IMG/VR virus record: IMGVR_UViG_3300050123_000043
Location: 1-64,000 of that record
Strand: one strand, 5' to 3'
Length of the DNA: 64,000 nucleotides
Origin: a virus
Taxonomy: Duplodnaviria > Caudoviricetes
Made by a program: the position numbers and the translations under genes. The notes beneath the pieces are model-generated. The model was not told where the DNA came from. It made no database searches and worked only from the letters and a program-made list of their open reading frames with translations. Numbering within the stretch: position 1 is the stretch's first letter; each line of letters starts with the position of its first letter. Of the stretch, positions 4,774-56,449 are shown piece after piece.

Positions 4774-5490
4774 TTAAAAAGGATTTTCGTTTGTAAAAGG
4801 TTTCCATTCTGTTGTTGTATCGTGTTTCCTTAAATCTCTTATCCTACGATATGTGACCCAAGTGATTGCTTGTAATTGGTGCGGTAATATGTCTAACTGT
4901 TTTGCAGCCTGTATAAAGCAGCGTTGAAAGAAGTCATATTGCGCCCTAGTTAAGTCTCCATACTTTTCATTCAAAGCATAAACGTTATCAGGGTTCTGTA
5001 TACAACATGCTATAGCATGTCTGTCTATTGTTACGTCCGTAATTATATCAGGATTAATCATATTAAGGAAAAACCCCTTAGTTTTAAATCCTGCATTCGC
5101 AATTGAAAGGGCATTATAAATATCCGGTTCCGCACTCAAGTTAAGAATTCTCTTAGCTTTGTTCGTTTGAACTAGGGATTTAATACGTCTGGTTGGATTA
5201 TAAAGGAATGACAAGGCAAAGCGTTTATTTTCGACCCAACCGGTTTGGGGGCTGAAAGCTGCAATGATCCCAGCAGCCTGTTGCAAGCTTATTCCGAACC
5301 TTGATGCAAGTTCCCTGCAATACTTGTTGGCTTCATTATACCACGTTAAACCGTCCTTTAATTCGCTAAGGGAGGCAAGGGAATAAAACCGTAGTATTGA
5401 GTTAATGCACTTGCGTTCAGTCAGCAATTGATTTTTAAACCTTTGATTTTTCATTGAATATTTGTTTTGCCCATTGGTTGAAGTCTCCAT
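4774..5490 (-). CDS. Phage protein of a putative alpha-helical DNA-glycosylase-like family
   Basis: WYxxA..AGIIAAFSPQTGWxxN, KTxxF, VTIDRHA and LQAITW motifs; start METSTN. Confidence 0.5.
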   Translation of the reverse strand: METSTNGQNKYSMKNQRFKNQLLTERKCINSILRFYSLASLSELKDGLTWYNEANKYCRELASRFGISLQQAAGIIAAFSPQTGWVENKRFALSFLYNPTRRIKSLVQTNKAKRILNLSAEPDIYNALSIANAGFKTKGFFLNMINPDIITDVTIDRHAIACCIQNPDNVYALNEKYGDLTRAQYDFFQRCFIQAAKQLDILPHQLQAITWVTYRRIRDLRKHDTTTEWKPFTNENPF

Positions 5491-6040: not shown

Positions 6041-6277
6041 TCATTTCAATTTTGTTTTAAGTGAATCTAATTCCAGCCTTGTAAGATAATCTAATCCTAC
6101 TGTATCTTTGTCTTGAACAAAAATAACAGAGGTATACCCTCTATTATCTGTGATTTGTTTTATTATCTTGTTTGGGTTAATGTTTGTTTTTATACCAGTT
6201 AAGATCAACATTAGTGAAATAATTGGTGTAAGCAAAGCAAAAAGTAAGATTGATTCGTCTCTGTAAGTTTGTTTCAT
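6041..6277 (-). CDS. Small membrane-anchored protein
   Basis: N-terminal hydrophobic segment. Confidence 0.5.
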   Translation of the reverse strand: MKQTYRDESILLFALLTPIISLMLILTGIKTNINPNKIIKQITDNRGYTSVIFVQDKDTVGLDYLTRLELDSLKTKLK

Positions 6278-10720: not shown

Positions 10721-11047
10721 ATGTATAATTTTTTAAAAGCAACACTTGATAGTGTTAACCAGTTGAGTCCCAAACCAGAAGAGTATTTTATAACTACTAT
10801 AAAAGGAACCGAACACCTTCCATTGGCTGTTGTAAATTCAGAAGGTAAACAAGGGGTTCAATTTAATCTTTATAATGAAAATGGAATCTATATAGGATTT
10901 AAAACATTCTTTTTTAGTACTTTAATTAGCATAGAACATTATAAATCATTTCCTGTTAAACCCGAATCTTTTTTAGCTAAGGACACTCCAACAACCCTGG
11001 AACAACTCGTTAAAGGATGCGTAGATAGAAAATCTAACGGATTATAA
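10721..11047 (+). CDS. Hypothetical protein
   Basis: Start trimmed to MYNFLK. Confidence 0.55.
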   Translation: MYNFLKATLDSVNQLSPKPEEYFITTIKGTEHLPLAVVNSEGKQGVQFNLYNENGIYIGFKTFFFSTLISIEHYKSFPVKPESFLAKDTPTTLEQLVKGCVDRKSNGL

Positions 11048-11056
11048 ATCAATTAT

Positions 11057-11272
11057 ATGGCAGCTAAAAAAGAAACTAGAAAATCATTTTGTATTACGGC
11101 TAAAATTAGTATCACCACATGTATTGAAGTTTATGCTAATACTTTTACTGAAGCTGTAGATTTATCAAGAGGTTTAAGCATAGAGAATTTTGTTGAAGTC
11201 ATTGGAGATCAGATTGATAGTGACTTCGGTATAGAAGGTATTTCTGCTTTTCCTAACACAGCAACTCTTTAA
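11057..11272 (+). CDS. Hypothetical protein
   Basis: ORF in run. Confidence 0.55.
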   Translation: MAAKKETRKSFCITAKISITTCIEVYANTFTEAVDLSRGLSIENFVEVIGDQIDSDFGIEGISAFPNTATL

Positions 11273-11437
11273 TTATGTACGAAGATTTATTAAAGGACCC
11301 TCCCGACACTGAGGAGGACATTCCAGACATTCTTCAACCCCCAGGCCCCGGAGTTCCGGTAGCCGGTCTGTGCTTTGCTGAAAGATTATAACAAAACTCA
11401 GTGATAATTATCATTGGATTTTGTGATAAAAATAAAA

Positions 11438-11459
11438 TTATAACAAAATTTTGTTATAA
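11438..11459. promoter_or_regulatory. 22-bp palindromic operator-like site TTATAACAAAATTTTGTTATAA
   Basis: Perfect palindrome; copies or variants at 11386, 19348, 20304, 20344, 26063, 26085, 40783, 42231, 42302, 56364, 56427. Confidence 0.8.
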
Positions 11460-11461
11460 AA

Positions 11462-11493
11462 TTTGGTAGATTAAAAAATTCTTCTTAGGTTTG
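11462..11493 (+). promoter_or_regulatory. Bacteroidota sigma-A promoter upstream of tRNA block 1
   Basis: TTTG-N20-TAGGTTTG. Confidence 0.75.
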
Positions 11494-11511
11494 TAGTCTA
11501 AATGATTTTTT

Positions 11512-11637
11512 ATGGTAGTAGGTATAATAATTGGTTTCGTTGCTGGCTTTGTATTGGCATTTGGAATCTTTCATAATAACAAAGCTAAAGCTGATGCGCT
11601 TGTTACAACCGTAGAAGCTGAAGCAAAAAAAGTTTAA
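11512..11637 (+). CDS. Small single-TM protein (41 aa)
   Basis: MVVGIIIGFVAGFVLAFGIFHNNKAKADALVTTVEAEAKKV. Confidence 0.55.
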   Translation: MVVGIIIGFVAGFVLAFGIFHNNKAKADALVTTVEAEAKKV

Positions 11638-11668
11638 TCAAATGGGTGGAGACGCTTAAAATATTACA

Positions 11669-11764
11669 ATGCAACAATTTACAATGATAGTGGATAATAG
11701 AATTAATGCCGGAGGCAACGAGAAATCTGCCCCAGGGAATCTATTATTTGACACTAGAGGATAA
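11669..11764 (+). CDS. Attenuator leader peptide 1 (MQQFTMIVDNRINAGGNEKSAPGNLLFDTRG)
   Basis: Codons 6-19 encode only block-1 amino acids; overlaps the antiterminator arm. Confidence 0.75.
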   Translation: MQQFTMIVDNRINAGGNEKSAPGNLLFDTRG

Positions 11765-11783
11765 AAGTACATCAAATAATTTG

Positions 11784-11820
11784 AAACCCTGGGGCCAGAA
11801 AGCTCCGGGGTTTTTTGTTT
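11784..11820 (+). terminator. Attenuator terminator 1
   Basis: AAACCCTGGGGC-CAGAAA-GCTCCGGGGTTT plus U-tract; 5' arm also pairs with GCCCCAGGG at 11729-11737. Confidence 0.85.
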
Positions 11821-11825
11821 TATAT

Positions 11826-11898
11826 ACCCTTGTAGCAAACTGGCCGTAGGCAAGAGACTTTTAATCTCTGGGGTTTGGTTCGATTCCAAACGGGGGTA
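11826..11898 (+). tRNA. tRNA-Lys(TTT)
   Basis: Cloverleaf; AGAGA-CTTTTAA-TCTCT. Confidence 0.9.
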
Positions 11899-11925
11899 CT
11901 TTTTCAGTTTATAAGCTTAAAATCC

Positions 11926-11996
11926 TCCTCTGAAGCATTAAAGTGATGCTCCAGACTCTTAATCTGGAGAACTTGGATCGGTACCAGGCAGGGGAA
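11926..11996 (+). tRNA. tRNA-Lys(CTT)
   Basis: CCAGA-CTCTTAA-TCTGG; atypical T-loop ATCGGTA. Confidence 0.85.
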
Positions 11997-12041
11997 CAAA
12001 TGATAAAGATGCGGAGATTAAACCGGTTATTCTCCGCAAAC

Positions 12042-12113
12042 ACATCCTTAGCTCATCGGTAGAGTGGGGCTTTTACACGGCTTAGGTAGAGGGTTCAATT
12101 CCTTCAGGATGTA
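12042..12113 (+). tRNA. tRNA-Val(TAC)
   Basis: Acceptor ACATCCT/AGGATGT; loop TTTACAC; G-U-rich anticodon stem. Confidence 0.8.
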
Positions 12114-12169
12114 CATAATGACCGTCATAACGAACATTTTTAGGCGACAATGTTCGTTATAACAAACAT

Positions 12170-12240
12170 TTTCTCTTCGTTTAATGGAAGGACGACTCGC
12201 TTCTAACGAGTAGGCGGGGTTTCGACTACCTCAGAGAAAA
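12170..12240 (+). tRNA. tRNA-Arg(TCT)
   Basis: ACTCG-CTTCTAA-CGAGT. Confidence 0.85.
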
Positions 12241-12245
12241 CTTAA

Positions 12246-12316
12246 GGCTTGTTAGCTCAACGGCAGAGCGTCCGGTTGTTAACCGGTTGATAATTGTTCG
12301 ATTCAATTACTGGCCT
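12246..12316 (+). tRNA. tRNA-Asn(GTT)
   Basis: CCGG-TTGTTAA-CCGG. Confidence 0.85.
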
Positions 12317-12326
12317 CAAAAATTTA

Positions 12327-12358
12327 TTTGGATTTGACACATATTTATCCTATTTTTG
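12327..12358 (+). promoter_or_regulatory. Internal sigma-A promoter for the nuclease gene
   Basis: TTTG-N20-TATTTTTG. Confidence 0.7.
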
Positions 12359-12364
12359 TGTCAA

Positions 12365-13171
12365 ATGAAACTAAAATTCACAGAAGAAGGGCATTCGTAT
12401 GAGTCAATTCCAGCCGTTTCCTGGACTTCTGTGACTAAACTAGTAGAAAGCTACTGCAATCCTTTTGACGAGAAGGATCAAGCTCTGAGGAGTTCACAGA
12501 ATACGAAATCAAAGTGGTTTGGAATGGACCCAGTGGAGATTATCAAACTCTGGAAGGCTGAAAACCTTCGTTCCACTGATGCCGGAACCTGGGTCCACAA
12601 CAAATGGGAAAAAAATGTTAGCTCTTTAAAGCACAAAGAGTGGGAAGGGAAGAAATTAAAAGTTTTTCCTGGAAAATGGGAAGGAGAAACTAAAATTGCA
12701 CCAGCCCAGGAACTTGAAGAAGGGGTTTACTCTGAACATATTATATATAATGAAAATCTTCAGGTGTGTGGACAGGCTGATATTGTTAATGTTAGGGATG
12801 GTTTTGTAGATATTATTGATTATAAGACTAGTAAGGAGATTGAGGACCACTCTTATGGATTCAAGTATGGAAATGCGAGTATGATGTTGGAACCGGTGAA
12901 CCATTTAGAGGATTGCAACCTTTCTCATTATGTTCTTCAGCTTGGTATCTATATGAGGCTCATCCTGTTAAAGAATCCGGCTCTGAAACCTGGTAAACTG
13001 ATCCTCATTCATGTAAAAATGGATATTAATGAGCTTGATCAATATGGATTTCCTATCCTAAAAAGGACAAAAGAAAACGGATATAAAATTAAAAGAACAA
13101 AAAATTATAATATAAAATACATTGAGAATGAAGTTCGTAGTGTATTAAAAGATCATTATTTAAAATTGTAG
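12365..13171 (+). CDS. PD-(D/E)XK (Cas4/RecB-like) exonuclease
   Basis: SVT, GTWVH, CGQADIV, IIDYKT and YxLQLxxY motifs. Confidence 0.85.
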   Translation: MKLKFTEEGHSYESIPAVSWTSVTKLVESYCNPFDEKDQALRSSQNTKSKWFGMDPVEIIKLWKAENLRSTDAGTWVHNKWEKNVSSLKHKEWEGKKLKVFPGKWEGETKIAPAQELEEGVYSEHIIYNENLQVCGQADIVNVRDGFVDIIDYKTSKEIEDHSYGFKYGNASMMLEPVNHLEDCNLSHYVLQLGIYMRLILLKNPALKPGKLILIHVKMDINELDQYGFPILKRTKENGYKIKRTKNYNIKYIENEVRSVLKDHYLKL

Positions 13172-13316
13172 GGTGGCGAAATTGGTAGACGCAACCGCTT
13201 GTCTCGCGGTCGTGGATAAGGAAATAGATAGTAGATAGACGGTTGACCAGCAATGAATTAACTTCTTTTGTCTACTGTTGAATCCCCACTTAATGGTTCG
13301 ACTCCATTTTCTACAG
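13167..13316 (+). ncRNA. tRNA-like RNA (GTC anticodon) with an ~80-nt structured variable-arm insertion
   Basis: Acceptor TGTAGGG/TTCTACA, class-II-type D arm, ACCGC-TTGTCTC-GCGGT, T arm AATGG-TTCGACT-CCATT. Confidence 0.75.
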
Positions 13317-13322
13317 CTATAT

Positions 13323-13396
13323 TGCGGGATAGAGAAGTGGTCTATCTCAAGGGTCTCATAAGCCCTACATCGTCAGTTCGAATCTGGCTCCCGCAA
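13323..13396 (+). tRNA. tRNA-Met(CAT), initiator-like acceptor
   Basis: TGCGGGA/TCCCGCA; AGGGT-CTCATAA-GCCCT. Confidence 0.85.
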
Positions 13397-13401
13397 CTTT
13401 T

Positions 13402-13472
13402 GCGCCATACGCATTCCGGTAGTGTGCCTGGCTTCCAACCAGGATGAGTCGGTTCGATTCCGACATGACGCA
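13402..13472 (+). tRNA. tRNA-Gly(TCC)
   Basis: CCTGG-CTTCCAA-CCAGG. Confidence 0.85.
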
Positions 13473-13476
13473 CTAA

Positions 13477-13548
13477 GGGAGAAATGCGAGTTCGATTCTC
13501 GCTCTGTCGGCTTCGGCTGACGGATAGTCCAGTGGCTAAGACGCTCCC
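13477..13548 (+). ncRNA. Circularly permuted tRNA-like RNA (acceptor closed by UUCG, no anticodon loop)
   Basis: Order: GGGAG, T arm, TCTGTCGGC-TTCG-GCTGACGGA, D arm, CTCCC. Confidence 0.8.
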
Positions 13549-13555
13549 GTTTTTT

Positions 13556-13626
13556 GACGGGTTCTTATATTGGTAGTAATCTTGGCCTTCACCCAGGAAA
13601 AGACAGTTCGATTCTGTCACTCGTTA
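13556..13626 (+). tRNA. tRNA-Glu(TTC)
   Basis: CTTGG-CCTTCAC-CCAGG (C33). Confidence 0.8.
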
Positions 13627-13632
13627 CACTTT

Positions 13633-13707
13633 CGGAGATCGGTCCGGCCAGGAACGGATGTCGCCTTGTCACGGCGAAGACCGTGGGTTCAAATCCCACA
13701 TTTCCGG
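13633..13707 (+). tRNA. tRNA-Asp(GTC)
   Basis: TCGCC-TTGTCAC-GGCGA; G73. Confidence 0.85.
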
Positions 13708-13833
13708 CAATCCAACTCTCACGCCATAATTTTATGGCGCACCAGGAGAATGAATGAAGTACGACATAGGCCCCCGTAGGTCATTCACGGTGTTTTTAAC
13801 AATTTCACAAGGTTACGAAAAATTGTTTTCTAT

Positions 13834-13911
13834 ATTGGGATAATTCAGTCTGGTCAGAATGCCTGGCTTATATCCAGGTAGTCATTGGTTCAAATCCAAT
13901 TCCCAATACCA
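13834..13911 (+). tRNA. tRNA-Ile(TAT) with encoded CCA
   Basis: CCTGG-CTTATAT-CCAGG; ATTGGGA/TCCCAAT-ACCA. Confidence 0.85.
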
Positions 13912-13979
13912 GTTCGTACAAAGGCACGAATTATTAAAAGATTCGTGCAAATACACAATTTGCAAATTGCGAATTGCAC

Positions 13980-14053
13980 TGACCTATGGCGCAGTTTGGT
14001 AGCGCAGCACTCTGATAAGGTGAAGGTCCCTGGTTCAAATCCAGGTGGGTCAA
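13980..14053 (+). tRNA. tRNA-Ile(GAT)
   Basis: Loop CTGATAA; canonical D and T arms. Confidence 0.9.
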
Positions 14054-14114
14054 CTCTGTTCATATTTTTTCTCTGTTCACGGAAACGCGAACACAGAGAA
14101 AATGTGAACAACCT

Positions 14115-14188
14115 GGGGCCGCATGTTCCGTAGTGGCGAGTCTCACTTGCAATGAGACTGTGATAGGGTGCAACTCCCTTGGGTTCCA
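14115..14188 (+). tRNA. tRNA-Ala(TGC), atypical D and T arms
   Basis: TCTCA-CTTGCAA-TGAGA; G3:U70 present. Confidence 0.75.
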
Positions 14189-14263
14189 CTTATTTTTTTC
14201 CCAAATTTGGAAATGTGAAAAATTTTCGCTATATTGAAATCTTCACATCCAAATTTAAATAAT

Positions 14264-14755
14264 ATGTTAAAGTCCCTCCTAGACAATCCAGAGAAGACCT
14301 TTTTTGGCAAGCTTAGAAACATTGGTTTTGTATTTGCACTGGAATTAATTTACTTAAGTATCATTATTTTTTTATTAAAACAGTTCGATCCTTTTGATTT
14401 AGATAATTTTATACATTCATATAGTTTGCCACATGTAATAGACGCTAATGCTATCGGAATGGTTTTCTTTGCTTGCGTTTGGGCACCCATCTGGGAAGAA
14501 GCGGCTTTCAGGTATGCTCCTATTACGATTGCCAAGAACTTTGGACCCCAATATTTGCTCCCGGTTATAATTATTAGCAGCGTTTTATTTGGTTGGGGAC
14601 ATGGAGATGGGCCTATTAGCCTTCTTATACAGGGAGTTGGGGGATTCTTGTTTTCCCTTCTTTATATCAAAAACGGGTTTAGCTATAAATCTTCAGTAGC
14701 TGCCCACTTCCTTTGGAACGCCTTTCTCATGCTTGCGCTTCCAGTAATAGTTTAA
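14264..14755 (+). CDS. CPBP (CAAX/Abi) family intramembrane metalloprotease
   Basis: APIWEEAAFR, FGWGH and AAHFLWN motifs. Confidence 0.85.
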   Translation: MLKSLLDNPEKTFFGKLRNIGFVFALELIYLSIIIFLLKQFDPFDLDNFIHSYSLPHVIDANAIGMVFFACVWAPIWEEAAFRYAPITIAKNFGPQYLLPVIIISSVLFGWGHGDGPISLLIQGVGGFLFSLLYIKNGFSYKSSVAAHFLWNAFLMLALPVIV

Positions 14756-14811
14756 AATTTATTTTGTAATATCAATTCTTTTAAGTACTTTAGGGTCATA
14801 ATTTAGTTATT

Positions 14812-15588
14812 ATGGCCCTAATTGCTATGGCGGTATATTCCACTGAGGAGAACGGAAAAAATGAATATCTGGATAGAACTCTTCAATCATTAGAAGAGAC
14901 TGTAGATTTTACAAAACATCGTTTAATTCTATCTGTTAATGCTTACACAGCAGAAACTCTTTTGATTTTCAGGAAATTTAAAGGAATGTTTACTCTTATT
15001 TTTAATGATTATAATTTAGGAACCGCTGAAGCAATTAATCTTGCCTGGAAAGATCAATGGCCGAATGAGAATCTTATCAAGATGGACGATGATGTGATTT
15101 TTCACGCTAATGGATGGGTTGATCGCATGGAAGAAGCGATTCAGAGAGATCCAACGATAGGTCAATGTGGTCTAAAAAGAAGAGATTGTACAGAAACCCC
15201 CTGGAACCCCGATCCCTTTTATAAATCAAAACTTGAAATGCTTCCTCACTCTCCCGGTGAAAAGTGGATTGTGGTAGAAGAAGTATCCCACGTTATGGGG
15301 ACTTGCGTTATGCATTCCTCCGCACTACTTGACAAAGTAGGATACCTTTATCAACCAAAACTTTATGGCTTTGATGATTCGTTCATGAGTCTTCGGTCCC
15401 GGATCGCGGGATTTAGGAATGTATTTTTGCCTGGTATAGATATTGAACATATTGATAGAGGAGATACTGGGTTCCAAAAATGGAAAGAGAAACATGCTGG
15501 AGAGTGTTGGCAAGAATATATGCAAGTGGTAAGAGATTATACATCAGGTAAAAAAAGTGTTTATTATAATCCATTCGAAAATGAATGA
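14812..15588 (+). CDS. Glycosyltransferase family 2
   Basis: NLGTAEAIN, KMDDD and YGFDD motifs (GT-A fold). Confidence 0.85.
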   Translation: MALIAMAVYSTEENGKNEYLDRTLQSLEETVDFTKHRLILSVNAYTAETLLIFRKFKGMFTLIFNDYNLGTAEAINLAWKDQWPNENLIKMDDDVIFHANGWVDRMEEAIQRDPTIGQCGLKRRDCTETPWNPDPFYKSKLEMLPHSPGEKWIVVEEVSHVMGTCVMHSSALLDKVGYLYQPKLYGFDDSFMSLRSRIAGFRNVFLPGIDIEHIDRGDTGFQKWKEKHAGECWQEYMQVVRDYTSGKKSVYYNPFENE

Positions 15589-16267
15589 TACAATAGTTCT
15601 TACTGCGATATATCATGAGTTTTGGGGAACGCATCACTTTAGAAAATCTGTTGAGAGGGTTGGTCTTGATGTCTATAATGTATTTCCTCCAGATGTTCCA
15701 TTTAAAGGAAATGGTTTTATTTATCAATACTTTTACAAAGCTTTTTTAGATCTTAAAGATAAATACAAAACAGTTATTTATTCGGATGGAGCAGATACAG
15801 TTTTTCAAAAAGCATTTGTACCACCAACCGATAGAATAATTTATTCTGTTGAAAAAGCAATATGGCCTCCTCTTCCGCATCTTAAAGATCTTTATGAAAA
15901 TTATTATAATAAACCTTGGCGTAGAAATGATTGGCCCTGGAAATATTTGAATGGTGGAAATTGGTGTGGTCCTGTTGATCTTCTAATTGAATTCTATGAA
16001 AGATACGGATTGAAAGATTTGACTGGAGATATAAATGGTCAGAAGGAACAAGCTGAAGCATTTATGAAAGCAGATGAAAATTTATTTCCTATTACCTTTG
16101 ATCTTCGTTGTGAATATTTTCAAACAACAGGTTTTGAAAACGTAGGGGATTTTAGTTTAGCAGAAGACAGAAAATCAATTATAAATAACTTAACAGGCAC
16201 CACCCCATGTGTCTTACACGGTAACGGTCGAACCGATATGGGTCCTATTTATGAACGCTGGAAATAA
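15581..16267 (+). CDS. PLOD/procollagen-glycosyltransferase-like GT domain protein
   Basis: YSDGADT, SVEKAIWP, YLNGG and HGNG motifs. Confidence 0.7.
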   Translation: MNDTIVLTAIYHEFWGTHHFRKSVERVGLDVYNVFPPDVPFKGNGFIYQYFYKAFLDLKDKYKTVIYSDGADTVFQKAFVPPTDRIIYSVEKAIWPPLPHLKDLYENYYNKPWRRNDWPWKYLNGGNWCGPVDLLIEFYERYGLKDLTGDINGQKEQAEAFMKADENLFPITFDLRCEYFQTTGFENVGDFSLAEDRKSIINNLTGTTPCVLHGNGRTDMGPIYERWK

Positions 16268-16931
16268 ACCAAACATTGTTATCATCGGTGGTGGTAATCA
16301 TGCTCAGTATTGTATTGACATTATTGAAAGAGAAGGCAAGTACAATATCATAGGGATTATTGATTCAATCAAAAACCTTGGAGATGATGTATTCGGATAT
16401 AAGGTTATTGGAAAACAAGAACACGTAAATTCTCTTTCAGATACTTATGGTTTTACGGCAGGTATAATTACAGTAGGAGATAACTGGGCAAGATATAAAA
16501 TATATTCAGATATTATTGAAACTTATCCCTCATTTACATTTGTAAACGCAATTCATCCTTCAGTAATAATAGGCAATAATGTAAAGATAGGTAAAGGAGT
16601 AATAGCAATGGCGGGTGTAATATTTAATCCTGGAGCAAATATTGGAGATTTTACTTTCTTTGCAACAGGTGCTCAAGTGGAACATGATTGTTATATTGGA
16701 GATTTCGCAAGTATATCCGCAGGATCTGTTCTTGGTGGTCATGTTCATATAGGAGACTTTGCTGCTATTACTCTAGGAGTAACAATAGTTGATCGCGTTA
16801 CCATTGGAAAAAATACAGTAATTGGATCAGGATCTCTTGTAACAAAAGATATACCAGACAATGTTTTGGCTTATGGAAGTCCTGCGAAAATAATAAGAAC
16901 AAGAGAACCAGGCGAAAGATTTTTAAAATAA
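16251..16931 (+). CDS. NeuD/PglD-family sugar acetyltransferase
   Basis: IIGGGNHA, hexapeptide repeats, VEHDC, GSPAK. Confidence 0.9.
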   Translation: MNAGNKPNIVIIGGGNHAQYCIDIIEREGKYNIIGIIDSIKNLGDDVFGYKVIGKQEHVNSLSDTYGFTAGIITVGDNWARYKIYSDIIETYPSFTFVNAIHPSVIIGNNVKIGKGVIAMAGVIFNPGANIGDFTFFATGAQVEHDCYIGDFASISAGSVLGGHVHIGDFAAITLGVTIVDRVTIGKNTVIGSGSLVTKDIPDNVLAYGSPAKIIRTREPGERFLK

Positions 16932-16935
16932 TAAC

Positions 16936-17727
16936 ATGTCACCATCCCACGCAATAGAATTAAACCATAGAGGTTATACTATTATACCAAATTTGATACC
17001 GCCTATTATTGTTGATGGATTGAGATATGCGTTGAACTTTTCATTTGATAAACACAGACAGATACAAATTGATAATAATAATGATATAGTTACGGAAGGC
17101 GTTGCTCTACATGTTTTATTAGATAATAGAAGATTTATTGAATTCTTACAATATCTTATGTTTGATATTAAGTTGTATTCCTTTCTGGAAGAAAATTATT
17201 TTAAATCAAAATTCATATTGAATTCGATGAGTGGCTTGAATAACTTACCAAACCAACCAAACTTTTCGTCCATAGTTCACCGTGATTTGAGATTTTATAC
17301 TGGCGAAATACCAGTCATGATAAATGCCCTTGTGATGGTTGACGAATTCACTGAAGATAATGGTCCCACCTTGTTATTACCATATTCTCATATTGATTTC
17401 GAAGAAAAACCAACCAATGAATACTTTCGAAGAAGTTCAGTGAAAGCTCTCGGTGAAGCCGGTAGTGTTTTATTATTTAATGCAAACGTTTGGCACGCAT
17501 CTAGCTTAAATACTTCTCGTAACGGAAGAAGAGCATTACCAATAACATTCACTAAATCACTTATAAAGCAGTTATTGGATTATCCCAGGGCTTTAGGATA
17601 CGATAGAATGGAAAGCTTTAGCGAACCAATGCAACAGCTTCTTGGGTATCATGCCCGTGTACCAGCCAACTTAGATGAATGGTATCAACCTTTTGATAAA
17701 CGATTTTATAAAAAAAACCAAGATTAA
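16936..17727 (+). CDS. Phytanoyl-CoA dioxygenase-family 2OG-Fe(II) oxygenase
   Basis: HRD, FTEDNGPT..PYSH, WH..S.N and RRA motifs. Confidence 0.85.
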   Translation: MSPSHAIELNHRGYTIIPNLIPPIIVDGLRYALNFSFDKHRQIQIDNNNDIVTEGVALHVLLDNRRFIEFLQYLMFDIKLYSFLEENYFKSKFILNSMSGLNNLPNQPNFSSIVHRDLRFYTGEIPVMINALVMVDEFTEDNGPTLLLPYSHIDFEEKPTNEYFRRSSVKALGEAGSVLLFNANVWHASSLNTSRNGRRALPITFTKSLIKQLLDYPRALGYDRMESFSEPMQQLLGYHARVPANLDEWYQPFDKRFYKKNQD

Positions 17728-17737
17728 AATAAACCAT

Positions 17738-17983
17738 ATGCCAATATTAATTTCTCGAAAACAGAATATAGTTCGATCATATACTTTTGAACTTAATCCA
17801 ATAGAAACTCAAAAATTTGAAGATGAGATTTTGAGTAATTTTTGGGATGCAACCAAAATTCCTGAAGACGAAAGAGCAGAGTTCAAAGTAACGTATACTA
17901 TAGATTTTTATAAAAAACCAGTAGAAGAAGAACCCCAACCCCAGGATGGGTCACATATTATACTAGGATTACCTTCTATCTAA
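17738..17983 (+). CDS. Hypothetical protein
   Basis: Start trimmed to MPILIS. Confidence 0.5.
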   Translation: MPILISRKQNIVRSYTFELNPIETQKFEDEILSNFWDATKIPEDERAEFKVTYTIDFYKKPVEEEPQPQDGSHIILGLPSI

Positions 17984-17985
17984 TA

Positions 17986-18017
17986 TTTGGTAATTTCAAT
18001 TATTTTACATATATTTG
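17986..18017 (+). promoter_or_regulatory. Sigma-A promoter of tRNA block 2
   Basis: TTTG-N20-TATATTTG. Confidence 0.8.
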
Positions 18018-18021
18018 TTTT

Positions 18022-18090
18022 ATGAAACATATCAATTCATATTATTCACTGAGTCTACTCTTATCGTCTTACGATACGGACCTGGGATAA
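18022..18090 (+). CDS. Attenuator leader peptide 2 (MKHINSYYSLSLLLSSYDTDLG)
   Basis: 12 consecutive Ser/Tyr/Leu codons upstream of the Leu/Ser/Tyr tRNAs. Confidence 0.8.
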   Translation: MKHINSYYSLSLLLSSYDTDLG

Positions 18091-18125
18091 TATTGAATTA
18101 ACCGAACTGATTCGGAAAAGTTATT

Positions 18126-18159
18126 ACCCTGGGATTTTTATCCTGGGGTTTTTTGTTTT
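18126..18159 (+). terminator. Attenuator terminator 2
   Basis: ACCCTGGGAT-TTTT-ATCCTGGGGT plus U-tract. Confidence 0.85.
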
Positions 18160-18233
18160 AGGGATGTGCTGCAATTGGTAGATAGCTACGCCTCAAAAGC
18201 GCATGTGTGTGGGTTCGAATCCCTCCTTCCCTA
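18160..18233 (+). tRNA. tRNA-Leu(CAA), short variable arm
   Basis: Loop CTCAAAA. Confidence 0.8.
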
Positions 18234-18262
18234 CTAAAAGCGTTACTAACGCTTTTCAGTAT

Positions 18263-18342
18263 ACCTTCGTGACTTATACGAAATGGCACAGTTACCGGTC
18301 TTAGAAACCGGGTCCTTGTGGGTTCGACTCCCACCGAAGGTA
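18263..18342 (+). tRNA. tRNA-Leu(TAG), short variable arm
   Basis: CCGGT-CTTAGAA-ACCGG. Confidence 0.85.
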
Positions 18343-18379
18343 CAATGTTTCCCTTATTAATGAGGTAAACAATTTATAA

Positions 18380-18459
18380 CCCTCTGTGGCTTATAGAAAT
18401 AGGTACACTTAACCGACTTAAAATCGGAGCTTGTCATGGTTCGAATCCATGCAGGGGGA
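18380..18459 (+). tRNA. tRNA-Leu(TAA), short variable arm
   Basis: CCGA-CTTAAAA-TCGG. Confidence 0.8.
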
Positions 18460-18464
18460 CATAC

Positions 18465-18551
18465 GGAAGGCCCCAGTTGACTGAGGTACACGGTCCTGAA
18501 CACCGCTAGGAGGCTAATACCCTTGTAAGAGTTGGACTCTCTTGCTTTCCG
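18465..18551 (+). tRNA. tRNA-Ser(TGA)
   Basis: GGAAGGC/GCTTTCC-G; loop CCTGAAC; long variable arm. Confidence 0.75.
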
Positions 18552-18669
18552 CTTTATATCTTTTAACATATAAAATCAGTAATATATTACCGATTATATC
18601 TAATAACGTATAATAAGGTAGAATATTTTGCAACAATCGGCAATTTATTACCGATTTTGCCGAAAGTTT

Positions 18670-18753
18670 GGAAAGTTAATTAGCAAGAGCTAACCCTCCC
18701 CGCTAAGGAGTGGGACCGGGAAACTGGTTGTGGTTCGTGTCCACAACTTTCCG
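18670..18753 (+). tRNA. tRNA-Ser(GCT)
   Basis: GGAAAGT/ACTTTCC-G; loop CCGCTAA; long variable arm. Confidence 0.8.
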
Positions 18754-18765
18754 CAAGAGGAAACA

Positions 18766-18797
18766 TTTGGAAGTTTCCTCTTTATTTCGTATGTTTG
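18766..18797 (+). promoter_or_regulatory. Internal sigma-A promoter for the HNH gene
   Basis: TTTG-N20-TATGTTTG. Confidence 0.7.
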
Positions 18798-18801
18798 TAA
18801 A

Positions 18802-19248
18802 ATGAAAAAGATATGTTCAAAATGCAATATTGAAAAAGAAGTACAAGATTTCAATAAACGCACAAACAGTAAAGACGGATATGATCCAAGATGTAGAACT
18901 TGTACAAAAGAACGAGATGTTTTAAGATATACTAAAAATCCCAAACTTTTTAAAGAAAGGGCAAAAGTTAAAAACACTTTTATAAGAGATAGAAACAGAC
19001 AATTTTTAATTGAATATTTAATTGATAAATCATGTATTGATTGTGGAGAAACCGATGCTGTTGTATTGGAGTTCGATCATATAGAACCTTCAACAAAAAT
19101 TGATTGTATTTCAGAAATGATTCCACGATCAAGTATTGAAAATATTAAAACTGAATTAAATAAATGTGAAATAAGATGTGCAAATTGTCATAGAAGAAAA
19201 ACAGCTAAACAATTTGGCTGGAAAAGAAAACACCTGGAATTATGTTAA
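18802..19248 (+). CDS. HNH endonuclease with N-terminal Zn-finger
   Basis: CSKC/CRTC; CIDCG..LEFDH..CANCH. Confidence 0.85.
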   Translation: MKKICSKCNIEKEVQDFNKRTNSKDGYDPRCRTCTKERDVLRYTKNPKLFKERAKVKNTFIRDRNRQFLIEYLIDKSCIDCGETDAVVLEFDHIEPSTKIDCISEMIPRSSIENIKTELNKCEIRCANCHRRKTAKQFGWKRKHLELC

Positions 19249-19272
19249 GATTAGATAAAACTTTACTCTTAT

Positions 19273-19343
19273 TGATTGAATACCAGGGCAGTAGGCACTG
19301 TCTGTAAAACAGAGGCACGTAGGTTCGAGTCCTACTCAGTCAA
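19273..19343 (+). tRNA. tRNA-Tyr(GTA), short variable arm
   Basis: CTGT-CTGTAAA-ACAG; TGATTGA/TCAGTCA. Confidence 0.8.
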
Positions 19344-19370
19344 CAAATTATAACTGAATTTTGTTATAAA

Positions 19371-19402
19371 TTTGGAAATTTGAAAAAGTATTATTAAGTT
19401 TG
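19371..19402 (+). promoter_or_regulatory. Sigma-A promoter of tRNA block 3
   Basis: TTTG-N20-TAAGTTTG, abutting a 22-bp palindrome variant at 19348-19369. Confidence 0.8.
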
Positions 19403-19413
19403 CAGTTAAGATT

Positions 19414-19506
19414 ATGAAACAGACTATCAACACGCGATTTTTTTGGCATCAACCGACCCCTCAAGGTCCAAGGGCTAAAGTTATGCGTGATACAGATATA
19501 GGTTAA
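19414..19506 (+). CDS. Attenuator leader peptide 3 (MKQTINTRFFWHQPTPQGPRAKVMRDTDIG)
   Basis: 11 consecutive Thr/Arg(CGA)/Phe/Trp/His/Gln/Pro codons upstream of those tRNAs. Confidence 0.8.
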   Translation: MKQTINTRFFWHQPTPQGPRAKVMRDTDIG

Positions 19507-19534
19507 ATAATCTCTTTTCTGCTTGCAACTTTTC

Positions 19535-19570
19535 AACCCTTGATTTTTCTAAACCGAGGGTTTTTTATTT
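19535..19570 (+). terminator. Attenuator terminator 3
   Basis: AACCCTTGATTT-TTCT-AAACCGAGGGTT plus U-tract. Confidence 0.8.
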
Positions 19571-19646
19571 CTAGTAATGGAGGAGTCCGGCCATCCTCGC
19601 GTGCCCTGGAAGCATGAGAACCCAGGTTCAAATCCTGGTTACTAGA
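19571..19646 (+). tRNA. tRNA-Pro(TGG)
   Basis: CGTGC-CCTGGAA-GCATG; C1:G72, A73. Confidence 0.85.
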
Positions 19647-19651
19647 CAAAT

Positions 19652-19723
19652 TCCTCTTAAGCTTTAATGGTGAAGCTCCAGTTTTGTAAACTGGTGAATG
19701 GGGATCGTTACCTCAAAGAGGAT
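19652..19723 (+). tRNA. tRNA-Thr(TGT)
   Basis: CCAGT-TTTGTAA-ACTGG. Confidence 0.85.
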
Positions 19724-19807
19724 CGAAGCCGGTTACCAAAATGTAAAAAAGCCGCCAGAACGTGTCTGGTTACTTGTTAAGACAAGTTGTAAAAAAGTTT
19801 GGGTTAT

Positions 19808-19882
19808 GTGTCTTGGGCAGGTCTGGTGACATTGCATCCGTTTGAAGAACGGACTAACAAGGTTCGATTCCTTGAGGATACG
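19808..19882 (+). tRNA. tRNA-Phe(GAA)
   Basis: TCCGT-TTGAAGA-ACGGA (G37). Confidence 0.8.
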
Positions 19883-19887
19883 CTTAT

Positions 19888-19959
19888 TCCTGGATCGTAT
19901 AACGTGTAGTACAGCCGTCTCTGACACGGTTAGCAATTGTTCGACTCAGTTTCCGGGAA
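19888..19959 (+). tRNA. tRNA-Gln(CTG)
   Basis: GCCGT-CTCTGAC-ACGGT. Confidence 0.85.
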
Positions 19960-19964
19960 CTTAA

Positions 19965-20035
19965 ACCCCTTTAGCATAAAGGTAATGCTGGTGGCCTTGA
20001 CCCACCAGAAGTTCGGTCGGTACGAGCAGGGGGTT
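19965..20035 (+). tRNA. tRNA-Gln(TTG)
   Basis: GGTGG-CCTTGAC-CCACC. Confidence 0.8.
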
Positions 20036-20037
20036 CT

Positions 20038-20107
20038 GTGAATCTAGTTCAATGGTAGAACGGCTGGCTGTGAACCAGGCAATTAGGGTTCGATCCCCGG
20101 TTTCACA
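20038..20107 (+). tRNA. tRNA-His(GTG)
   Basis: CTGG-CTGTGAA-CCAG; lacks the G-1:C73 pair. Confidence 0.8.
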
Positions 20108-20153
20108 CAACGCATGAATTTTTAATAAAAATTCATGCAAAATATTAACATAA

Positions 20154-20225
20154 CCTCCTTTCGTTCAACGAATAGGACCTCTGGCAACGAACCAGAAAAT
20201 AAAGGTTTGATTCCTTTAGGGAGGT
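20154..20225 (+). tRNA. tRNA-Arg(ACG)
   Basis: TCTGG-CAACGAA-CCAGA (A33). Confidence 0.8.
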
Positions 20226-20230
20226 CAATT

Positions 20231-20299
20231 ACGTGCCAGGCTAAGGCAGCCAAGCAAACTCCAAATCTGTAGGAGATAGTTCGATTCTATCGGTGCGTG
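20231..20299 (+). tRNA. tRNA-Trp(CCA)
   Basis: Loop CTCCAAA; ACGTGCC/GGTGCGT-G. Confidence 0.8.
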
Positions 20300-20791
20300 C
20301 AAATTATAACAAAAAGCAATTATAATTACTTTTTGTGATAATATTCACACAAAATTTTGTGATAAATGTTGGAAGTGTCAAAAGTATTGTTTTACTTTGC
20401 ACCCAACTTTCACCAGTAAAGGACACGCCACCACGAAAAAACAATGATATGAAGTGGCGCAACTACGTCCTGCCAATCTATGGCCCCAGTTTGGGAGGGG
20501 GGCCGGGGGGAGGGCCTCAACCCTTCATATTATTGATTTATAATACGTTAAATGATTACTGGTTAAATAGTTGGCCTGGTAAAGCTTATAAATTTGGTTA
20601 TGTGCTTTGAATTACATATATTTACAGAGGTAAAAAGCACAAAAAATATAAAAAGAGATTCAAGGAATCAATTTAAGATATTACCATCAAAAAAACACCT
20701 ATCTGGTTATAATCAAAAAACGTAATCTGCGTCCATTTAAAACGTTTAAGCAGATGGCGGTGAATTAGGTGACACCGTTTCCCGGTGGTAT

Positions 20792-20820
20792 AAAAGATGC
20801 AATTTATTGCATCTTTTTTT
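20792..20820 (+). terminator. Intrinsic terminator
   Basis: AAAAGATGCAAT-TT-ATTGCATCTTTT plus T-tract. Confidence 0.7.
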
Positions 20821-20874
20821 ATTTAACATAGTCTTAACTTGGTTTTATAATAAAAAACTGTTACATTTGCAAGT

Positions 20875-21222
20875 ATGAGAGCGTTGAAGATAGAAAAAAA
20901 GACTGATTCGAAAACTCAACAGATAAAGCTTGTATTATCAATCATTTGTCTATTAAACAATATTAATCTCTCAGAAACAGACTATATAGTTCTTGCTTTT
21001 TTTATTCAATATAAAATGAGTCACAAAACCGATGATTTGATAATAAAGAGTGGGGTTGTAAAGAACTTGGATGTTTTAAGGAATGTTAAAACCAGGTTAT
21101 GTAAGAAGGGATTTTTAAAAAGAGATCTTAAAGAATACAAAACCTATGATTTAAACATGAGTGCGGGGGAGTTCAATTGGGAAGACAATGATATTCGATT
21201 AATTATAAAACTCAATAATTGA
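20875..21222 (+). CDS. Hypothetical protein, possible winged-helix DNA-binding protein
   Basis: LSETDYIVLAF..NVKTRLCKKGFL pattern; promoter-like TTG-N20-TACATTTG upstream. Confidence 0.5.
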   Translation: MRALKIEKKTDSKTQQIKLVLSIICLLNNINLSETDYIVLAFFIQYKMSHKTDDLIIKSGVVKNLDVLRNVKTRLCKKGFLKRDLKEYKTYDLNMSAGEFNWEDNDIRLIIKLNN

Positions 21223-23431: not shown

Positions 23432-23507
23432 GGCCAGGTACCCAATGCTGGACGCGGGGTTAGTCTGCAAAACTTACTTAACACCAGTTCGATTCTGGTT
23501 CTGGTCT
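23432..23507 (+). tRNA. tRNA-Cys(GCA), stand-alone
   Basis: GGCCAGG/TCTGGTC-T (U73); loop CTGCAAA. Confidence 0.8.
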
Positions 23508-23519
23508 CAAAAAAATAAT

Positions 23520-40758: not shown

Positions 40759-40784
40759 CCCCCGTTTCTACGGGGGTTTTTTTT
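40759..40784 (+). terminator. Intrinsic terminator
   Basis: CCCCCGT-TTCT-ACGGGGG plus T-tract. Confidence 0.85.
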
Positions 40785-40855
40785 ATAACACTTTTTTGTT
40801 ATAATTTCTTTGTTTTACCGATAATTGTATTATCTTTGTACAAAATGTGTTCATT

Positions 40856-56362: not shown

Positions 56363-56449
56363 TTTATAACAAAATTTTGTTATAAATTTCGGATTTACAG
56401 GAAATTATAATAAATTTGTGTGATAAATCTCACAGAATTTTGTTATAAA

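Follow-up and report, generated by a model that had tools for sequence, protein, structure and literature searches.

The third block of tRNA genes in the phage genome studied here is preceded by an element that is likely to be a ribosome-mediated (leader-peptide) transcription attenuator – one whose regulated genes are the tRNA genes themselves. Judged from the sequence, the tRNAs of the block are probably made only if ribosomes run short of them. The case is built upon features that can be read directly from the DNA: the parts of the element and their spacing, the match between the leader and the tRNAs encoded behind it, the co-variation of the two across phages, and the complementarity of alternative helices.

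The stretch analysed (hereafter the window) is the opening 64 kb of a 97,828-base IMG/VR virus record with an estimated completeness of 75%. Its large terminase matches PHROG 6681 (E 4.7e-53). In a tblastn search with this terminase, in which 62 records matched, the closest named phage was Leptolyngbya phage Lbo-JY46 (40.8% identity), followed by Cellulophaga phages phi17:2 and phi4:1 (~29%) and then by crAss-like phages; a megablast comparison of 11000-21000 of the window with the phage collection gave no match. Three blocks of tRNA genes lie between 11.4 and 20.3 kb, and the element under study precedes the third. Four DNA runs were examined for variants of the window and showed none, and hence no compensatory change of natural origin.

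The element before the third tRNA block

The element, which we call unit 3, and the genes that it would control occupy 19348-20300 of the window and are made up as follows.

19348-19369, no strand assigned: palindrome of 22 bp directly 5′ of the promoter, operator-like in appearance and a putative operator in function (regex scan)
19371-19402, plus strand: Bacteroidota-type promoter, -33 TTTG and -7 TAnnTTTG (pattern scan)
19414-19506, plus strand: leader ORF, 30 codons and a stop, with homologous ORFs similarly placed in relatives
19432-19464, plus strand: regulatory run, codons 7-17, with only Thr, Arg, Phe, Trp, His, Gln and Pro
19431-19447, plus strand: region 1, predicted to pair with region 2 in naked RNA (MFE)
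19458-19504, plus strand: region 2, upstream strand of the putative antiterminator, containing CAAGGG (19469-19474) and AAAGTT (19477-19482)
19527-19542, plus strand: region 3, AACTTT and the terminator 5′ arm with CCCTTG, the alternative partners of which are region 2 or region 4
19535-19562, plus strand: predicted intrinsic terminator hairpin (regions 3:4), -9.9 kcal/mol
19563-19570, plus strand: T-tract 3′ of the hairpin, its last base adjoining tRNA-Pro
19571-20300, plus strand: the putatively regulated block of eight tRNA genes, Pro-TGG, Thr-TGT, Phe-GAA, Gln-CTG, Gln-TTG, His-GTG, Arg-ACG and Trp-CCA

The promoters of this and other units were classed by the pattern TTTG / TAnnTTTG, which we take to be the Bacteroidota consensus. 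In unit 3 the promoter ends 11 nt 5′ of the ATG, and the mRNA should therefore be nearly leaderless. The pattern scan gave 7 matches on the plus strand of the 64-kb window, 5 of them within the tRNA region, and none inside the tRNA block (19571-20300), which also holds no protein-sized gene. An earlier sequence-only reading of this DNA had described the block as free of internal genes and promoters, and so it proved. The same reading had placed an 11-residue run, TRFFWHQPTPQ, at codons 7-17 (19432-19464), with CAG and ACT as codons 3 and 4; both are there as read. Taking as run score the longest stretch of a leader made up solely of amino acids carried by the downstream tRNAs, unit 3 has a run of 11 and a coverage of 1.00: all seven amino acids of the block are in the run, as had been claimed, and no other residue is.

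The eight tRNA genes said to lie behind the leader were also recovered. ARAGORN at default settings calls seven (Pro-TGG at 19571, Thr-TGT at 19652, Phe-GAA at 19808, Gln-CTG at 19888, Gln-TTG at 19965, His-GTG at 20037 and Arg-ACG at 20154), and the eighth, Trp-CCA (20231-20300), at a relaxed threshold only; the Rfam tRNA model does not recognise this last gene even at E<=1. Several tRNA calls in this work needed the relaxed threshold, and some are uncertain. The pairing proposed between CAAGGG and CCCTTG (19537-19542), together with AAAGTT/AACTTT, holds by position, by duplex folding and by constrained folding. The putative attenuator anatomy – promoter, short ORF, run, antiterminator, terminator and genes, with no second promoter – thus lies where that reading had put it.

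The hairpin ends 8 nt upstream of tRNA-Pro. At -9.9 kcal/mol it is the third weakest among the 29 units tabulated below, which is a point against attenuation, and it was left unlisted by a consensus terminator scan because its apical part is larger than the loop limit of that scan; the same scan picked up the terminators of both sister units (11783-11814 and 18126-18149). A G-rich run of ~35 nt (20480-20520), inside an ORF-like stretch, follows the tRNA block and a further promoter-like region.

The arrangement suggests how such an element would work. Transcription would begin just upstream and the 30-codon ORF would be translated at once, codons 7-17 demanding exactly those charged tRNAs that are encoded downstream. 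Were one cognate tRNA scarce, the ribosome would wait on the run and leave free the segment of the ORF behind it, which could then pair with the emerging 5′ arm of the terminator; with that arm occupied, the polymerase would read through into Pro-Thr-Phe-Gln-Gln-His-Arg-Trp. Were all cognate tRNAs plentiful, the ribosome – heading for the stop codon – would cover the segment, the terminator hairpin would form, and transcription would stop 8 nt before tRNA-Pro. The outcome would be a block-wise negative feedback on tRNA supply with an 'any one of seven' logic. Translation of the leader ORF, termination at the hairpin and the direction of the switch are the steps that we infer. Natural triggers may include a mismatch in codon usage, decay of host tRNAs after shut-off, and the cutting of tRNAs by host defences: the last is speculation, prompted by passages in PMC10264068 and PMC11555353 that concern phage tRNAs as an answer to tRNA-cutting host enzymes.

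Two sister units precede the other tRNA blocks of the window.

11669-11820, plus strand: sister unit 1, with its leader ORF at 11669-11764 and its terminator hairpin core at 11783-11814
18022-18149, plus strand: sister unit 2, with its leader ORF at 18022-18090 and its terminator at 18126-18149

Behind the leader of unit 1 come Lys, Lys, Val, Arg-TCT, Asn, an exonuclease-like gene, Met, Gly, Glu, Asp, Ile, Ile and Ala. This leader has a run of 14 with a coverage of 1.00, and its antiterminator (-21.5 kcal/mol) was equalled by 0/200 shuffles. Unit 2, which is followed by Leu, Leu, further long-arm tRNAs, Ser, an HNH gene and Tyr, has a run of 12 composed solely of Ser, Tyr and Leu. The promoter regions of units 1 and 3 share 81% identity across 62 nt. 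An identical 22-bp palindrome is found directly 5′ of promoter patterns at 11438-11459, 19348-19369, 40783-40804 and 56364-56385; it resembles an operator for a dimeric phage regulator and, if it is one, would constitute a second layer of control.

Each of the two genes inserted among the tRNAs – the exonuclease-like gene (PHROG 298; 12356-13171) in block 1 and the HNH endonuclease gene (PHROG 2255; 18730-19248) in block 2 – is accompanied by a promoter pattern, at 12327, just 5′ of the exonuclease-like gene, and at 18766, just inside the listed HNH start. The tRNAs behind them (Met to Ala in the one case, Tyr in the other) may for this reason escape the attenuators. Just before tRNA-Met, both in the window (13167-13317) and in the related locus L008 (659-811), is a tRNA-like stretch that is called only with an insert of 64-70 nt and that differs in identity between the two; it could be an intron-bearing, a long-arm or a decayed tRNA. 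The tRNA-Cys of the window (23432-23508) has no leader-terminator unit.

Units and their leaders in related phages

Relatives were sought by way of the terminase. A search of viral contigs with the single terminase protein found none, and an alignment of 30 terminases led to the retrieval of 80 IMG/VR loci. When Lbo-JY46 (L007) is added to them, fourteen loci have at least three tRNA genes upstream of the terminase. Two loci, L011 and L028, were left out because their tRNA spacing duplicates that of L010 and L026, and twelve remain. At least one unit is present in 11 of the 12; the twelfth (L047) is cut off by the end of its contig and retains only the last part of a block, so that a leader would lie beyond the sequence. 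The three units of Lbo-JY46 are ordered as they are in the window. Cellulophaga phage phi4:1 has three as well, on the strand opposite to the terminase gene, and the annotation lists two of their leaders as hypothetical proteins. Five additional units came from two metagenome relatives that are closer, their terminases being 64% and 67% identical. The first tabulation comprises 29 units from 13 sources, and the full set 34 units from 15 sources: the window, the IMG/VR and metagenome relatives, Lbo-JY46 and phi4:1. A leader was taken to start at the first ATG behind the promoter or, for one phi4:1 unit, at the annotated start.

In the gut crAss-like phage cr55_1 neither of two lone tRNAs has a leader-terminator unit (0/2), and the arrangement is therefore not universal among phage tRNAs. 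In another locus (L056, 3030-3142) a promoter pattern is followed at once by a tRNA-Met, without a leader; an initiator tRNA, should it be one, would escape sensing through the stalling of elongation.

A short ORF right behind the promoter is common to the 29 tabulated units, and a hairpin with a T-run is found in all of them (29/29). Stop codon and hairpin are a median 25 nt apart. From hairpin to tRNA the median is 8 nt, with 28/29 units between 2 and 13 nt; in the outlier, where the distance is 83 nt, an uncalled tRNA-like stretch lies between. The closeness of the hairpin end to the tRNA 5′ end in those 28 units lends itself to a post-transcriptional explanation, in which the hairpin serves RNA processing or stability, and the ribosome on the leader governs how efficiently the first tRNA is released by RNase P or other nucleases, and not the stopping of the polymerase. 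A second arrangement fits this explanation too: in L026 (2584-2664) and L045 (5527-5595) a Glu-rich short ORF with its own promoter enters a lone tRNA-Glu by 14-29 nt, and there is no terminator between ORF and tRNA. Translation can therefore touch a tRNA precursor directly in this phage group, and with the Glu-rich ORF, perhaps a variant element, the ribosome may act on the folding or processing of the tRNA itself. But a G+C-rich hairpin with an immediate T-run, seen in 29/29 units, is the signature of an intrinsic terminator, and the post-transcriptional explanation gives no role to the co-varying leader segment complementary to the 5′ arm, which is described below. We consider it unlikely.

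Attenuation, as put forward in the sequence-only reading, is favoured by the decisive comparative test: in relatives, leader composition changes with the downstream tRNA genes. For unit 3 itself, the longest run against its amino-acid set among 1373 background small ORFs from the same loci was 10, so that 0/1373 reached 11, and a match between this leader and its tRNAs by chance is excluded. The match of leader to block has p<0.05 in 26/29 units, p-values that overstate independence since the units are related by descent. Within phages, a leader is strictly best for its own block in 24/26 comparisons, and the two failures are units with uncalled Ser and Tyr tRNAs.

Independent evidence for the co-variation is that of several distinct tRNA rearrangements. 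Asp and Asn tRNAs are in block 1 of the window, L007 and L012, and the first leaders there have Asp and Asn; in L015 and L048 the same tRNAs are in the Pro block, the leaders of which have Asp and Asn, and the first leaders are without them. Between these two sets of phages Arg-ACG was relocated oppositely to Asp and Asn, and the CGN codon went along. Where tRNA-Cys is in block 1 (L007 and L012) the first leader has six and four Cys codons, respectively; block 1 of the window has no tRNA-Cys and its leader no Cys codons. Counting against the pattern, the first leaders of L015, L048 and L089 have one or two Cys codons though tRNA-Cys is elsewhere. In L026 and L045 the tRNAs are regrouped into a Pro-Gln-His-Arg-Leu-Ser-Tyr block and a large second block, and the leaders follow: the second leader of L026 opens with a run of 23 residues in which each of the 13 amino acids of its block occurs and no others do, and in L045, where the second block is without Met, Ile and Val tRNAs, the leader core is without Ile and Val. 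Phage phi4:1 shows another partition, into three differently composed blocks, each with a matching leader.

In a count that took in 34 units from 15 sources, codons 2-20 included a given amino acid in 189/197 cases where the block encodes its tRNA, and in 164/449 where it does not, an odds ratio of 41. For Trp the split across the 34 units is perfect (12/0 versus 0/22).

At the level of codons, strict wobble has 247/314 run codons read by the tRNAs of the block and 67/314 unread, the latter nearly all in four-codon boxes with a single U34 tRNA; the test gives no discrimination except for Arg, which is the sole amino acid here with two separate tRNA classes. For Arg, blocks with only Arg-TCT have AGR in 8/8 Arg codons, and in 8/8 units with Arg-ACG as their sole Arg tRNA the leader's first Arg codon is one of CGA, CGT and CGC. 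Both codon classes are present in the 2/2 units whose blocks have both tRNAs. The Arg codon in the run of unit 3 is CGN, which agrees with its Arg-ACG tRNA.

These comparisons bear upon a further explanation, namely that the small ORFs encode peptides active in themselves and are only incidentally placed, or else that the match reflects chance together with shared ancestry. The annotation of two phi4:1 ORFs as hypothetical proteins would fit active peptides, as would some conservation of the C-terminal parts of the leaders within the window. But it is the composition of the run that is conserved and that tracks the tRNA genes, while the order of its residues is not; composition follows the tRNA genes when they move; and the observed run is reached by no background ORF. 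Active peptides, or chance and ancestry, are in our view highly improbable.

Folding of the putative switch

Central to attenuation is a segment of the leader at about codons 16-21, just behind the run, that across units is complementary to the 5′ arm of the terminator. Pairing of a leader with its own arm is stronger than every cross-phage pairing in 14/29 units, and is equalled by at most 10 of 200 shuffles in 22/29 (mean z -3.1). In the window, L089 and L008 the leader segment and the terminator arm change together, and in L090 they do so less. Unit 3 is among the weaker cases. Its antiterminator duplex comes to -10.2 kcal/mol versus -9.9 for the terminator, 6/200 shuffles and 2/26 foreign leaders do as well, and the antiterminator core is of 6 bp only, a further point against attenuation.

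The effect of ribosome position was modelled by masking a stretch of 29 nt, with thermodynamic folding and an assumed footprint. For naked unit 3 RNA the model gives the terminator an equilibrium probability of 0.91, the run being paired with the segment behind it. Placing the A site on any of codons 4-11 lowers this probability to 0.22 or less: a ribosome stalled early in the run covers region 1 (19431-19447), and with the A site on codons 7-11 the segment 19458-19504 pairs with 19509-19560, taking up both arms of the terminator. From codon 12 onward, and at the stop codon, the probability is again at least 0.83, so that in equilibrium only the first five codons of the run (7-11) flip the switch. 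If the ribosome stalls at codons 12-17 (His, Gln, Pro, Thr, Pro, Gln), the terminator is still the favoured fold, which counts against the proposal. A full equilibrium switch is seen in 11/29 units only, and three units fold as the antiterminator without a ribosome.

The behaviour of codons 12-17, and that of the three units which adopt the antiterminator fold unaided, would fit a reversed logic – that is, one in which smooth translation of the leader opened the switch and stalling closed it, giving a commitment switch that delivers tRNAs only when translation works. Against this, the stop codon is a median 25 nt from the hairpin, too distant for a terminating ribosome to melt it, and the antiterminator strand lies within the ORF, so a moving ribosome destroys the antiterminator. 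Further evidence comes from a proxy for co-transcriptional folding, in which the transcript is cut upstream of the 3′ arm of the terminator. With a ribosome on the run the 5′ arm is sequestered with a mean of 0.74, and with a ribosome 2-6 codons beyond the run with a mean of 0.39; in 26/28 units the arm is freer after the ribosome passes the run. The values for unit 3 (0.69 versus 0.54) are less sharp than those of most units. Reversed logic seems to us quite unlikely, and the folding models support, although they do not prove, the direction in which a stall gives read-through. None of the three rival explanations – post-transcriptional action, reversed logic, or active peptides and chance – accounts for the co-varying antiterminator and the terminator signature together.

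Known attenuators and the control of phage tRNA genes

Attenuators that respond to more than one amino acid are known from enterobacteria: the thr leader reads Thr and Ile, and the leaders of ilvGMEDA and ilvBN read Leu, Val and Ile. The element described here is like them in having a short leader ORF whose regulatory codons stand for two or more amino acids and, by computation, a mutually exclusive terminator and antiterminator decided by the position of the ribosome. It is unlike them in several respects. The thr and ilv attenuators regulate enzymes, whereas here the genes are those of tRNAs; the run of unit 3 samples seven amino acids (and those of sister units 3 to 13); the run is rebuilt whenever the tRNA set changes; and the mRNA is nearly leaderless, has a Bacteroidota-type promoter and matches no Rfam leader family. 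What is new by comparison with the thr and ilv systems is that tRNA genes are the target, that a single leader spans 3 to 13 amino acids, and that evolution has evidently rewritten the leaders.

Another related system is the pheST attenuator of E. coli, in which a leader with Phe codons precedes the genes of phenylalanyl-tRNA synthetase. As proposed for the phage element, leader-peptide attenuation there acts on a gene of the translation apparatus and reports the supply of charged tRNA. The pheST leader senses one amino acid, whereas the element in the phage would sense several, and because the pheST product is a synthetase its feedback is on charging and not on the amount of tRNA. T-box leaders bind uncharged tRNA directly through RNA-RNA contacts and need no ORF. 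They resemble the phage element as terminator/antiterminator leaders that report the state of a specific tRNA and control translation-related genes; unlike a T-box, the phage element has an ORF and is without specifier or T-box motifs. The T-box model gave no match at the Rfam gathering score or at E<=1. The gathering score was reached by tRNA only, and nothing, neither a leader family (Thr, His, Leu, Trp and similar) nor any other Rfam model, overlapped 19414-19570 even at E<=1. Unit 1 drew a match to the L10 leader at E 0.42, which we regard as fortuitous.

Passages of a preprint on mycobacteria (bioRxiv 10.1101/834739) describe leaderless poly-Cys short ORFs as Cys-responsive attenuators. 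As presented in those passages they share with the phage leaders a leaderless short ORF, the codon content of which senses an amino acid, and control over downstream genes; they differ in sensing a single amino acid, in serving cysteine-related operons, and in belonging to another phylum and mechanism class. A full-text literature search, with subscription journals largely outside it, turned up no description of tRNA genes under the control of a leader peptide, and nothing about phage Lbo-JY46.

It is a long-standing question what purpose tRNA genes serve in phages and how they are controlled. We lean towards the view that phages of this group carry a programmable 'codon test strip' before each tRNA block: a leader peptide, rewritten in evolution so as to spell out the amino acids of its block, that turns the block on when any of its charged tRNAs is short in the infected cell. 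If this is true, tRNA genes would for the first time be known to be under leader-peptide control, and the strip would sense tRNA loss directly, also when that loss is due to tRNA-cutting defences of the host or to host shut-off. A leader that reads the codons served by its own tRNAs would mean that supply is driven by demand, with only the deficient block switched on; the decoding capacity of the cell would be measured codon by codon. Attenuation would be extended from amino-acid synthesis to the tRNA pool, with up to 13 amino acids per leader. The parts of such attenuators could also serve as reporters for the supply of single tRNAs. As the leaders are short and modular, and are present in the cultured pair of Cellulophaga baltica and phage phi4:1, the idea is directly testable.

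Two observations on the leaders and their promoters may be added. In Lbo-JY46 a Bacteroidota-style promoter pattern stands before the leaders (1780-1830, 5345-5390 and 6075-6120), as it does in the window, and the host of record of this phage is the cyanobacterium Leptolyngbya: either a phage factor reads the pattern, or the host record merits a second look. The last five or six codons of the three leaders in the window (19486-19506, 18073-18090 and 11747-11764) are alike, being Asp/Thr-rich with a Gly-stop end, and one phi4:1 leader has a similar ending; these shared ends could reflect a common RNA structure or slow release at the stop codon.
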